Positions 1,624-6,092 of a DNA stretch of 17,995 bases are shown piece after piece (within the stretch, counting starts at the first letter, position 1; the number at the start of each line of letters is the position of its first letter). The position numbers were made by a program, and so were the translations under genes. This DNA comes from a virus, in UHGV virus genome UHGV-0163678. The stretch is one strand, 5' to 3'. A model generated the notes under the pieces. That model ran no database searches and was not told the origin of the DNA. It was given only the letters and a program-made list of their open reading frames with translations.

Positions 1624-2340
<717 letters not shown>

Positions 2341-2347
2341 TTAAATC

Positions 2348-2413
2348 TATCACCGCAAGGGATAAATATCTAACACCGTGCGTGTTGACTATTTTACCTC
2401 TAGCGGTGATAAT
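2348..2413. promoter_or_regulatory. Right operator OR3-OR2-OR1 with divergent pRM and pR promoters
   Basis: OR3 TATCACCGCAAGGGATA (2348..2364) and OR2 TAACACCGTGCGTGTTG (2371..2387) match lambda as recalled. OR1 (2395..2411) reads TACCTCTAGCGGTGATA, one base different from the canonical TACCTCTGGCGGTGATA. pR -35 TTGACT at 2384..2389 and -10 GATAAT at 2408..2413. Confidence 0.9.
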
Positions 2414-2428
2414 GGTTGCATGTACTAA

Positions 2429-2641
<213 letters not shown>

Positions 2642-2775: not shown

Positions 2776-3072
2776 ATGGAACGAACAAGTTACAGCAAAC
2801 TATCACAGCGTGACGTTGATCGCGCAGAAACTGATTTACTCATCAACCTGTCAACGCTTACCCAGCGCGGTCTGGCAAAGATGATTGGCTGTCATGAATC
2901 GAAGATAAGCAGAACGGACTGGAGATTTATTGCTTCGGTCTTGTGTGCTTTCGGAATGGCATCAGACATCAGTCCGATTAGCAGGGCTTTTAAGTATGCG
3001 CTTGATGAAATCACAAAGAAAAAATCCCCGGCCGCCACCGAGGATTTTAAGCAAATTGATATGCAATTCTGA
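2776..3072 (+). CDS. CII-like transcriptional activator (non-lambda allele)
   Basis: 98-aa ORF in the cII position. The C-terminal tail [17 protein letters not shown] parallels the lambda CII tail KKRPAATERSEQIQMEF as recalled; the rest is divergent. Confidence 0.65.
2786..2799 (-). promoter_or_regulatory. Candidate CII-binding site of a pRE-like promoter (TTGC-N6-TTGT on the minus strand)
   Basis: Direct tetranucleotide repeat with 6-bp spacing just inside the 5' end of the cII-like gene, oriented toward cro and cI, as at lambda pRE. Confidence 0.35.
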
Positions 3073-3104: not shown

Positions 3105-3251
3105 ATGACAAAACAACTCAGTCCTTACCAGGACAAAATTCACAAACACATACTACGTGATCGCTTCCTGTCCAGCTTCAAGCAGCCTGGTCGATTCCGG
3201 GCTGAGTTGGAAAAAGTGAAGCTGATGCAGAAGGAGAAAGGTCATGAGTAA
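3105..3251 (+). CDS. Small hypothetical ORF (48 aa) between cII-like and O-like genes
   Basis: ATG sits at the position homologous to the lambda O start, after the conserved GGTCATTACTGGATC junction. Reads [21 protein letters not shown]... and ends 8 nt inside the O-like gene. Below the ORF-track size cutoff; found by manual translation. Confidence 0.3.
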
Positions 3252-4104
3252 TCTTGCAACCGTAACACATTTAAGGCCTTCACAACGGCCTGTGGAGCGT
3301 CGTGTGGCAGAAGTTGAAGATGGTTATACCCGTCTTGCAAATGCCCTGTATGAAGAGCTTATCGGCGCAGATTTAACAAAAAATCAGAGTAAGGTTGCCC
3401 ACGCCATATGCCGTAAAACATACGGATACGGTAAAAAGATGGATCGCATCTCTGATAGTCAGTTAGCTCAAATTACCAGGCTGCCAAGACAGAAGGTAAA
3501 CAAGGCCAAGAATGAGCTTATCGCGATGAAGGTAATCCTTCGCGAAGGCCAGCAAATCGGGCCTAACAAGAACATCGAGGAATGGCAAATCGAAGGGTGT
3601 CACTACTCTGGTGATAATGTCACTGCATTGGTGACAAAAAGTGTCACCAAAACGGTGACAGCGCTGTCACCAAAACAGGGACACACAAAAGAAACTATTA
3701 CAAAAGAAAAAAGAAATAATAAAAACACTATGTCCGAAAGTGTTCGGACGGAGTGTGAAAAATCATCTGACCGTCACGAAGAAACCGACAAGGCATTCGA
3801 GGAAATATTCTGGTGTGCAGGCATGCGGAAAGCCGGGAAAAAAAACGCAGCTTCGGCATTCAGAACACAGTTCAGGGAATGGCGTAAAACTACCAGGGGT
3901 ACGGCAAGCGAGTTTGCCACGATGCTGGCAGAAGACATCGCATGCAGGAATGGTAAGCAGTTCGGATTCGACAGGTTGTTACCATCGAGCTACTTGAACG
4001 GTCAGCGCTGGAACGACGAAAAGCCAGAAACCATTCAACCACAATCCAAACCATCATCCGCAATCACCGTATCGAAAACTGGCTACGTGTTTTTCGACAG
4101 GTGA
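3244..4104 (+). CDS. Replication initiator, lambda O-like (origin-binding N-terminal domain; divergent C-terminal domain)
   Basis: 286 aa. N-terminal region aligns with lambda O as recalled (DGYxRLxNxL...GADLTKxQxKV...RKTYGxxKxMDRIxDSQL...GPNKNIxEW). Iterons and an AT-rich tract lie inside the gene, as at ori-lambda. Confidence 0.8.
3605..3730. repeat. Putative replication origin: dyad-symmetric iterons (GTGACA-N5-TGTCAC type) followed by an AT-rich tract
   Basis: Repeats such as GTGACAAAAAGTGTCAC (3631..3647), GGTGACAGCGCTGTCACC (3654..3671) and two GTCACCAAAAC units, followed by AAAAGAAACTATTACAAAAGAAAAAAGAAATAATAAAAAC. Same architecture as ori-lambda but a different iteron sequence. Confidence 0.6.
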
Positions 4105-4211
4105 ACCATGAAATCAAAAATCAAATCGCTACTGGTCGCTGGTTATAACCACGGCTGGTTAAGTATTTCGTTTGTCGATTTCTGGTTTAAAAATCTCAAT
4201 CTGAGGGAATC

Positions 4212-6092
4212 ATGAGGCCAAGTGAACTTAGCGACCTGCTTTGGGCGCAGGTTGACAGGGTGGCTCCGCACCTGTTGCCAAATGGCAAGAAAGAGGGGCA
4301 TGAGTGGGTTGCCGGTAACGTCAACGGTGACAAGGGAAACAGCCTTAAGGTCAACCTTAGCGGCAAGAAAAAATGGGCTGATTTCGCTGAGGGAGACGGC
4401 GGTGACATGCTTGATTTGTGGATGGCATGTCGTGGAATTAACCTGCATCAGGCTATGCAGGAAGCGAAAGCATTTCTCGGTATCAAGGATGACGATCACC
4501 ATTTCGATGCCAGACGTGAGAAGAAATTCTCCAGACCTGATCGCAAGAAAATCGCCCGCTACGTTACCAGAACAGAATCCCATCTTGAGTACCTGCAATC
4601 GCGTGGCATATCGCCAGAAGTCGTAAAGCGCTACGAGGTTGTCAGCGGCAAGGTGTGGAATGGAGAACGAGAACTGGATGCTCTGGTGCTTCCGTACAAA
4701 CGCGATGGTGAGTTGTTGCAGGTCAAGCGAATCAGCACTGAGCGCCCGGACGGGAAGAAAGTCATTATGGCAGAAGGTGATTGCGAACCTTGTCTGTTCG
4801 GATGGCAGGCTCTGGACGCTGGCGTGAGGGCGGTTGTGCTTTGCGAAGGCGAAATTGATTGTATGAGCTATGCGCAATACGGCATCTCGGCATTATCCGT
4901 GCCGTTTGGTGGAGGGAAAGGCGCTAAGCAACAGTGGATTGAGTTTGAGTATCACAACCTCGACAGGTTTGAGGAAATATTCATCTCGATGGACGTTGAT
5001 GATGTTGGTCGTGAAGCCGCAAGGGAAATCGCAAGCCGACTCGGTGAACATCGTTGCCGTCTTGTTACTCTGCCGTACAAAGACATCAACGAATGCCTGA
5101 TGAACGGTGTTACCGATGATGAAATCTGGCAGTACATCGGCACGGCATCCTACTTCGATCCTGAAGAACTCTACAGCGCGCGAGAGTTTTACCAGGACAC
5201 TATCAACGCTTTCTACGGCAAGCAGCAGTATCTGTTTAATCCACCGTGGGAATCTCTGGCAGATAAATTCCAGTTCCGTGAGGCCGAGTTGACGCTGGTC
5301 AATGGTGTGAACGGTCACGGAAAAACGGAGGTTGTCGGGCATATGGCACTTGAGGCAATGCGTCAGGGTGTGAAGACGTGCATCGCGTCACTTGAGCTGA
5401 AGCCAGGCATTCTCCTTAAGCGACTTACCCGTCAGGCGACGTGCTGCAAGATGCCGCCAGTGCTGGAAATTGACTCTGCATTTAAATTTTATGACGAAAG
5501 ACTTTGGGTGTTTGGCCTGACCGGAACGGCGAAAGCCGACAGGCTGATCGAAATATTCGACTACGCTCGCCGCCGATACGGCATCCAGTTATTCATCATC
5601 GACAGCCTGATGAAATGTGGCATAGGCGACGATGACTATAACGGGCAGAAGGCGTTTGTTGACTCGATTTGCGACTTCAAAAACAAAACAAACTCCCACG
5701 TCATTCTCGTTACTCACTCGCGAAAAGGAGACAGCGAAGAAAAACCAACCGGGAAAATGGACGTAAAAGGTTCTGGAGCGATAACAGACCTGACAGACAA
5801 CCTTTTCATCATCTGGCGTAACAAGGCTCGCGAGAGAGCGTTACAGAGAGTTCAGAGTGGTGAAAAGATGTCAGAGAAGGACGAACAGCTACTGGCATCT
5901 CCGGCATCTGTTTTGATGCTTGAAAAACAACGTAACGGCGAAGGTTGGGAAGGTGGTGTCCCGTTGTTCCTTGACGAGCAATCGCACCAGTTCCTGCAAC
6001 TTGAATCAGGATCGCCATATAGCTACATCGCCAATATGCCGAAATCGGAATATGACGAGGCGTGGCGACAGGAAAACGTGACGGAGTATTAA
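4212..6092 (+). CDS. Putative bifunctional primase-helicase (TOPRIM-like primase region with a C-terminal DnaB/RecA-like helicase domain)
   Basis: 626 aa. Acidic motifs typical of TOPRIM (VLCEGEIDCMSY, MDVDDVGREAA); Walker A-like GVNGHGKTEV and Walker B-like LFIIDSLMK. Occupies the position of lambda P, downstream of the O-like gene. Confidence 0.75.
   Translation: MRPSELSDLLWAQVDRVAPHLLPNGKKEGHEWVAGNVNGDKGNSLKVNLSGKKKWADFAEGDGGDMLDLWMACRGINLHQAMQEAKAFLGIKDDDHHFDARREKKFSRPDRKKIARYVTRTESHLEYLQSRGISPEVVKRYEVVSGKVWNGERELDALVLPYKRDGELLQVKRISTERPDGKKVIMAEGDCEPCLFGWQALDAGVRAVVLCEGEIDCMSYAQYGISALSVPFGGGKGAKQQWIEFEYHNLDRFEEIFISMDVDDVGREAAREIASRLGEHRCRLVTLPYKDINECLMNGVTDDEIWQYIGTASYFDPEELYSAREFYQDTINAFYGKQQYLFNPPWESLADKFQFREAELTLVNGVNGHGKTEVVGHMALEAMRQGVKTCIASLELKPGILLKRLTRQATCCKMPPVLEIDSAFKFYDERLWVFGLTGTAKADRLIEIFDYARRRYGIQLFIIDSLMKCGIGDDDYNGQKAFVDSICDFKNKTNSHVILVTHSRKGDSEEKPTGKMDVKGSGAITDLTDNLFIIWRNKARERALQRVQSGEKMSEKDEQLLASPASVLMLEKQRNGEGWEGGVPLFLDEQSHQFLQLESGSPYSYIANMPKSEYDEAWRQENVTEY

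Follow-up and report, generated by a model that had tools for sequence, protein, structure and literature searches.

The window, a stretch of viral DNA of 17,995 nucleotides (UHGV virus genome UHGV-0163678), gives as a whole mosaic matches to P22-like and lambdoid phages, and the region described here is the early-right operon of a lambdoid phage. A cI-like repressor gene (1624-2337, minus strand) is followed by cro (2438-2641, plus strand), cII (2776-3072), a DUF2740-type small ORF (3105-3251) and a gene for an O-like replication initiator of 286 aa (3244-4104, plus strand). Between cI and cro, upstream of the latter, lies a pR-like promoter (2385-2413, plus strand; TTGACT-17-GATAAT, 10 of 12 matches, a match to consensus only), from which transcription would run rightward across cII and O, including the origin that O contains. 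Downstream of O, an ORF of 35 aa (4108-4215, plus strand), 97% identical to its homologue ES18 gp60 and lacking annotation in the mEp043 record, precedes a gene for a 626-aa primase-helicase (4212-6092, plus strand), after which come the nin-region genes. The primase-helicase is T7 gp4-like, combining Toprim with a DnaB-like ATPase (Pfam Toprim_2, E 3e-12; AAA_25 above the cut-off; DnaB_C just below the cut-off; PHROG 'DNA primase/helicase', E 4e-171); its ES18 counterpart, gp61, is annotated as 'putative primase/helicase; similar to T7 gene 4'. It is the likely partner of the C-terminal domain of the O-like protein.

The O-like protein carries a full-length match to the Pfam domain Phage_rep_O (PF04492) at aa 20-114 (E 1.1e-37; 128.8 bits against a gathering cut-off of 28.7) and belongs to the PHROG 'replication initiation O-like'. 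Homology to lambda O extends over aa 1-157 only, with 49-53% identity in the N-domain. The C-terminal domain (aa 157-286; 3712-4104, plus strand) shows no significant similarity to that of lambda O; it is of the ES18/epsilon34 type, with a nucleotide identity of 93-97% to ES18, epsilon34 and g341c that begins at nt 428 of the gene. A preliminary description of this DNA had placed an origin-like iteron array and an AT-rich tract in the linker-coding part of the O-like gene, and this location was borne out, since both lie inside the ORF and after the Phage_rep_O domain: the iterons (3598-3683) encode aa 119-147, with the end of the Phage_rep_O domain at aa 114 and the start of the ES18-like C-domain at about aa 143-157. 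Over its whole length the gene shares 98.4-99.2% nucleotide identity with the O genes of mEp043, Sf101, SEN22 and vB_EcoP-720R6.

For characterization of the array, a combination of a repeat finder and a pattern search of the window was used, by which four copies of the 19-bp dyad unit TGTCAC-N7-GTGACA were recovered between 3598 and 3683. Neither these units nor the two elements to their right are assigned a strand. Iterons 2 (TGTCACTGCATTGGTGACA, 3618-3636) and 3 (TGTCACCAAAACGGTGACA, 3642-3660) have perfect arms with 0 mismatches, the latter around a lambda-like CAAAAC centre. Iteron 1 (TGTCACTACTCTGGTGATA, 3598-3616), which is in register with lambda iteron 1, has 1 mismatch to the unit, as does iteron 4 (TGTCACCAAAACAGGGACA, 3665-3683), whose right arm is degenerate. 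This right arm, lambda-like in sequence, was tried as the mark of a recombination joint and rejected as unspecific, because it is degenerate in every origin class examined. The spacer inside each iteron is constant at 7 nt, and successive units are separated by 1, 5 and 4 nt, which gives a start-to-start spacing of 20/24/23 bp, or about two helical turns. The preliminary description had reported four or so dyad repeats of the type GTGACA-N-TGTCAC, beginning at 3605. The count of four stands, but the constant internal spacer, the gaps of 1/5/4 nt and the register with the annotated lambda iterons correct the phase of the unit: GTGACA-N-TGTCAC is what results where one unit adjoins the next, and the array starts 7 nt earlier, at 3598.

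Elsewhere in the 18 kb the pattern search gave a single further match, with 2 mismatches, at 4314-4332, which is compatible with chance, and it returned no second iteron cluster in the window. Shuffled windows held a mean of 0.70 matches with up to 2 mismatches per 18 kb, and 0 of 200 shuffles reached 5 or more matches. The presence of four iterons inside 86 nt is therefore far beyond chance, with a rough Poisson estimate below 1e-6 for the whole window.

Conservation of the array was examined in 63 distinct relatives. As the search pattern by which these were collected required the arms of iterons 2 and 3, the conservation of those arms is circular and was not counted; the arms of iterons 1 and 4 lay outside the pattern. 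These are conserved at 87-100%, except for the right arm of iteron 1 (54-95%), with the left arm of iteron 1 at 92-98%, while mean conservation of spacers and inter-iteron linkers is 76-79%. Conserved arms in iterons 1 and 4 over drifting spacers point to selection at the level of the DNA.

Immediately to the right of the array lies the AT-rich tract reported in the preliminary description, here delimited to 3684-3724. Its GC content is 17%, where the window averages 48%, and A makes up 71% of its top strand; the two 41-nt windows of lowest GC in the whole sequence begin at 3685 and 3687. This tract is the presumed unwinding element. Right of iteron 4 it holds the block ACACAAAAGA..ACAAAAGA, which is common to the nine origins that were fully compared.

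The tract is in turn bordered by a G+C-rich inverted repeat, ACACTATGTCCGAA/TTCGGACGGAGTGT (3725-3738/3743-3756), the positional counterpart of the lambda ori palindrome. With this repeat included, the right end of the element moves from 3730, where the preliminary description had set it, to about 3756. Its 14-nt arms are 86% complementary, and in variants with GAGCGAA/TTCGCTC, where both arms have changed, they still pair. The folding energy of the repeat as single-stranded DNA is -11.9 kcal/mol (z -5.9), which places it no higher than in the top 2% of the 70-nt windows of this sequence. The corresponding repeat is weak in PhiR12_1, PhiR26_1 and phi80, and the notion of a universal origin element was dropped on that ground. 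Given its rank among 70-nt windows and its weakness in some other classes, the role of the repeat is uncertain, and it may not truly be defining of ori-lambda-type origins. An Rfam search gave no RNA family match anywhere in the window.

The coupling of iteron arms to the initiator N-domain was then approached with two scans. The iteron-led scan took viral contigs with two adjacent TGTCAC-type iterons and gave at least 120 loci, 114 of them with a complete N-domain. In all 114 the N-domain was 61-100% identical to that of the window and only 49-59% identical to that of lambda. The C-domains in these contigs were of the ES18 type (45), the P22/HK97 type (19), the lambda type (17) or the phiEt88 type (9), with 28 being other or truncated. 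The helix-led scan used the back-translated peptide of a helix in the N-domain (described below) and gave 119 loci with enough downstream sequence. TGTCAC-type sites, three to five in number, start 81 nt downstream in every one of the 119, and there are exactly four in 117; 105 of the 119 loci were shared with the iteron-led set and fourteen were additional. The strict co-occurrence of iterons and helix was established directly; the two contig sets overlap heavily, however, and because iterons and helix are only 81 nt apart, part of the co-occurrence is plain linkage.

More telling are the cases at the boundary of the class. Citrobacter phage Omnitron and Erwinia phage Midgardsormr38, at 64% overall identity, have the helix RSKANIAK and arms of the TGTTAC/TGTATC type like those of phiEt88, whereas another contig (L037), at 61% identity, has the helix RQKVNKAK and TGTCAC arms. 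Hafnia phage Pocitis76 has the helix RQNVNKAK and iterons of the form TGTCTC-N7-GAGACA. Across relatives, then, arm sequence tracks the short helix, and neither overall relatedness nor the C-terminal domain. Both TGTCAC-N7-GTGACA iterons and an N-domain with the helix motif are found in the window, which places it in the origin class labelled here as mEp043-type. The proposal of the preliminary description that non-lambda iterons imply another initiator-origin specificity is supported by this comparative evidence, that is by the arms, the N-domain and the agreement in 114/114 and 119/119 contigs.

The helix in question, at aa 79-93 (3478-3522, plus strand) and containing RQKVNKAK, is the putative recognition helix of a winged-helix N-domain and the likely determinant of specificity. 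The residues by which the TGTCAC class differs from the others, and which are invariant in it, are concentrated at aa 50-56 and aa 79-87. When a profile of 11 N-domains was compared with the PDB, weak matches to winged-helix regulators were returned (E 0.03-2), in which aa ~66-105 correspond to a helix-turn-helix plus wing. These weak matches, together with the covariation, are the basis for assigning the recognition helix of a winged helix-turn-helix, and they are suggestive only. A search of the whole O protein against PDB sequences found nothing relevant, and an AlphaFold2 model of the N-domain from the single sequence was unusable (pLDDT 44.5).

The C-domain behaves differently from the N-domain and is swapped freely. 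In the window and in mEp043, the N-domain and TGTCAC-type iterons are joined to an ES18-type C-domain and a primase-helicase. The PhiR12 phages have the same type of iterons and an N-domain that is 100% identical, but a lambda-type C-domain followed by P and ren; Proteus phage vB_BPM-V3, also with TGTCAC-type iterons and an N-domain 69% identical, has instead a P22/HK97-type C-domain followed by a DnaB-like helicase. Conversely, ES18, epsilon34 and g341c (gp59, O-like; gp60; gp61) share with the window the C-terminal half of O, the right inverted repeat, the 35-aa ORF and the primase-helicase, yet have lambda-type iterons and a lambda-type N-domain. The class of the C-domain was observed directly to predict the next gene in 35/35, 14/14, 15/15 and 6/7 contigs, and after an ES18-type C-domain comes the primase-helicase gene in all 35 of its contigs. 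On these data the C-domain tracks the gene that follows it. The mosaic joints fall in or next to iteron 4 and the A-rich tract, where identity to PhiR12_1 ends (gene nt 473) and identity to ES18 begins (nt 428), and this joint region is the DNA most conserved among classes. Two recombination points, 39157/8 and 39165/6, are given in the lambda record for the corresponding A-rich region.

Based on this body of comparative sequence evidence, we consider it very probable that a P22-like lambdoid phage or prophage has its replication origin at 3598-3756, that this origin is homologous to ori-lambda and belongs to another initiator-origin specificity class, and that it works as proposed in the following. 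In lambda, an O dimer binds each 19-bp iteron, the inner iterons filling first, and the resulting O-some brings about supercoiling-dependent unwinding of the AT tract; O contacts the origin with its N-terminal part and the loader with its C-terminal part (PMC7466680, PMC6022878, PMC2629481). By homology, dimers of the O-like protein would use the winged-helix N-domain to bind the four TGTCAC-N7-GTGACA iterons, with RQKVNKAK probably reading the arms. On supercoiled DNA the four bound dimers would form an O-some-like complex, which would destabilise the adjoining A-rich tract (3684-3724), and rightward transcription might activate the origin. The last step, helicase recruitment, would depart from the lambda scheme, where P brings in host DnaB: judging from gene linkage alone, the ES18-type C-domain of O would directly recruit the phage's own primase-helicase (4212-6092).

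Such an origin could be vestigial, inherited from an ori-lambda-type ancestor by a phage that has its own primase-helicase, initiates elsewhere and leaves the iterons unused. The helicase module is indeed not lambda-like, and iterons 1 and 4 are imperfect. Imperfect outer iterons are, however, also normal in lambda, and ES18-type modules with lambda iterons have the same layout as the window. The arms are conserved across N-domains down to 61% identity while the spacers drift, exactly four sites stand at a fixed offset in 117 of 119 contigs, and the window offers no other iteron cluster. Loss of function is for these reasons very unlikely in our view.

Two further explanations deny the dyads a part in replication altogether, and we give even less credence to either. 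Selection might act on the linker peptide, the DNA dyads being a by-product; the region encodes a V-T-K-type linker, and similar VTK repeats are present in many relatives. Against this, the one DNA motif is translated in each of the three codon phases (phase 0 in iteron 1, giving C-H; phase 2 in iterons 2 and 3, giving V-T; phase 1 in iteron 4, giving L-S-P) and is therefore a DNA-level and not a peptide repeat, and other classes have the same DNA architecture with quite different peptides there. Lambda O with the in-frame deletions ori95 and ori96, which affect the AT-rich part of the linker, still complements O amber mutants, so that this stretch of linker is dispensable for O function (PMC6022878). 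Selection on the peptide is extremely improbable on this evidence. The dyads might otherwise act in transcription, as operators for O autoregulation or as terminators of antisense transcripts, and a terminator scan did return three minus-strand sites with a hairpin plus T-run (3672-3653, 3660-3642 and 3749-3732). Such matches arise automatically from dyads beside A-runs, however, and no promoter-like site pointing in from the right was found on the minus strand between 3757 and 4300. In lambda, the homologous sites have been footprinted as binding sites of O (PMC7466680), and a transcriptional role has next to no likelihood.

Read as a functional origin, the element marks the replication start of the phage or prophage, and it predicts groups of replication incompatibility and complementation: TGTCAC-type phages would be expected to be served only by an O protein with a matching N-domain, whatever their helicase module. 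The series of helix and arm variants, taken with the three-way shuffling of C-domains, also makes a data set on the separate, modular evolution of initiator specificity and helicase recruitment. A bolder reading may be put forward, which we think unlikely. The TGTCAC origin would then be an undescribed specificity class, and the variants TGTCAC, TGTTAC and TGTCTC, each with its own helix, would make it possible to read the code by which O-type winged-helix initiators recognise their sites. The inverted repeat at 3725-3756, which varies with the class of C-domain and helicase and stays paired through compensatory changes, would be a class-specific helicase loading site, at which an ES18-type C-domain would load a T7 gp4-like primase-helicase without a P-like loader. 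The current understanding of lambdoid replication is unchanged by the present results.

Among known systems, the closest in layout is ori-lambda, which consists of four 19-bp iterons (ATCCCTCAAAACGAGGGA), an AT-rich tract and a palindrome within gene O. The window has the same intragenic position and iteron number and, like lambda, an inverted repeat beyond the right end of the AT tract. The annotated iteron starts of lambda (39034/39054/39078/39101) give a spacing of 20/24/23, identical to that found here. Positional homology was established directly by a three-way alignment of window, lambda and ES18, in which the iterons are in register column for column while the arms differ, and in which near-identity is seen at the CAAAAC centre and from the iteron 4 centre to the end of the A-rich tract. 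With ori-lambda the window further shares a CAAAAC centre in two iterons. With this alignment, the spacing, the ACACAAAAGA block, the A-rich tract and the inverted repeat, the layout is that of ori-lambda, as the preliminary description had held, and the segment is an ori-lambda-type origin in its intragenic position, its four iterons, its AT tract, its inverted repeat and its positional homology. The differences from lambda lie in recognition and loading. Most arm positions differ (TGTCAC/GTGACA here, ATCCCTC/GAGGGAT in lambda), as does the putative helix (RQKVNKAK as opposed to VKRCNEAK in lambda O), so that in arms and N-domain the window falls outside the lambda specificity class, which comprises lambda, ES18, epsilon34 and the Stx phages. 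Nor does it follow the O-P-DnaB loading pathway of lambda: lambda has P after O, whereas no P gene is present here, the next large gene encodes the Toprim/DnaB-like primase-helicase, and the O C-domain is unrelated to the P-binding domain of lambda.

For comparison with the remaining lambdoid origins, nine were anchored on ACACAAAAGA (window, PhiR12_1, Proteus BPM-V3, phiEt88, lambda, ES18, P22, mEp213 and PhiR26_1). These have one layout and six arm types, namely those of lambda, P22, mEp213/HK97-like phages, PhiR26_1, phiEt88 and the window. The arms are ATTTACC..GGTAAA in P22 gene 18 and ATTAGCC..GGCTAAT in the mEp213/HK97 type; the PhiR26_1 iteron is TTTACCyGAATCAGGTAAA. In phiEt88 and Midgardsormr38 they are TGTTACC..GGTAACA, the phiEt88 type differing from that of the window by one bp per half-site, and in Pocitis76 they are TGTCTC..GAGACA. 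The iteron of phi80 gene 15, TTCCCGAAAACGGGAA, is of another arm type and is annotated as gp15 binding sites. All these classes have the same architecture inside a Phage_rep_O gene, and most keep the spacing and the A-rich anchor. HK022 has 11-bp direct repeats in place of dyad iterons. By arm sequence, the TGTCAC type is not that of lambda, phi80, P22, HK97-like phages, HK022 or phage L; phage 82, a classical third origin type, stands outside this comparison.

The nearest relatives, mEp043, Sf101, SEN22 and vB_EcoP-720R6, have iterons 98.6-100% identical and the same primase-helicase, and carry effectively the same element as the window. TGTCAC-type segments are also present in Shigella, Salmonella and Proteus phages, and the 211-nt origin segment was found in 181 of 5426 complete E. 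coli genomes. The records of ES18, P22, lambda and phi80 contain annotations of the origin or of initiator-binding sites. In the mEp043 record, the one inspected in full, no origin is annotated over the segment; the Sf101 paper makes no mention of iterons or an origin, and in searchable literature the iteron string matches unrelated primers only. Several matched specificities of lambdoid origins and O proteins are already established (PMC2629481, PMC8022706), so that a different specificity, although the right reading of the window, is not new in kind. Set beside these systems, the segment is a real origin-type element, so far unannotated, of a kind long known.

Comparison of the window with PhiR12_1, ES18, and BPM-V3 showed that the O-like initiator gene (3244-4104, plus strand) is a mosaic of two modules, with joints falling within iteron 4 or the A-rich tract (3671-3716). 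One and the same N-domain and iteron set occurs joined to three different C-domains. The helicase or loader gene that follows O matched the class of the C-domain without exception, whether this gene was a primase-helicase (35/35), P (14/14), or DnaB-like (15/15). The window encodes a single T7 gp4-like primase-helicase downstream of O (4212-6092), as do ES18 and epsilon34, and both a P-like loader and a separate DnaB-like gene are absent from its replication module.

To the right of the A-rich tract lies a G+C-rich inverted repeat (3725-3756), of which each C-domain class carries a separate version. Among relatives of the ES18 class, pairing was maintained despite changes in both arms, the variants being GTCCGAA/TTCGGAC and GAGCGAA/TTCGCTC; only a weak counterpart could be seen in PhiR12_1, PhiR26_1, and phi80. 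In the 3' part of the O gene, the P/Q/S-rich tail of the C-domain is encoded by an imperfect 19-nt tandem duplication, AAACCATCAACCACAATCC, present in 1.9 copies (4028-4065).

Small plus-strand ORFs lie on either side of O. The first, a DUF2740-type ORF (3105-3251), overlaps the start of O, and several RefSeq records (mEp043, Sf101, SEN22, and UAB_Phi20) call it a "tail protein"; because it sits in the replication region, this label looks like an annotation error. A 35-aa ORF (4108-4215), which lies between O and the primase-helicase and overlaps the start codon of the latter, shares 97% identity with ES18 gp60 ("function unknown"); the mEp043 record leaves it without annotation. Upstream, a strong terminator-like hairpin with a 12-pair stem and T-run was found on the minus strand (3048-3021), overlapping the 3' end of cII, at the position that the oop antisense RNA terminator occupies in lambda and P22. 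Rfam returned no families across the whole window.

Close relatives of the N-domain (Omnitron, Midgardsormr38, phiEt88, and Pocitis76) carried graded iteron variants, namely TGTTACC..GGTAACA, TGTATCC..GGGAACA, and TGTCTC..GAGACA, each matched with its own sequence at the putative recognition helix. Together, the iteron and putative helix variants constitute a natural specificity series. Some origins with TGTCAC-type iterons (viral contigs L010, L017, L023, L047, L050, and L076) contained five to seven iterons rather than four, with centres of the CACCACGGTAGTGAC type, and are reminiscent of the six-iteron origins of Stx phages.
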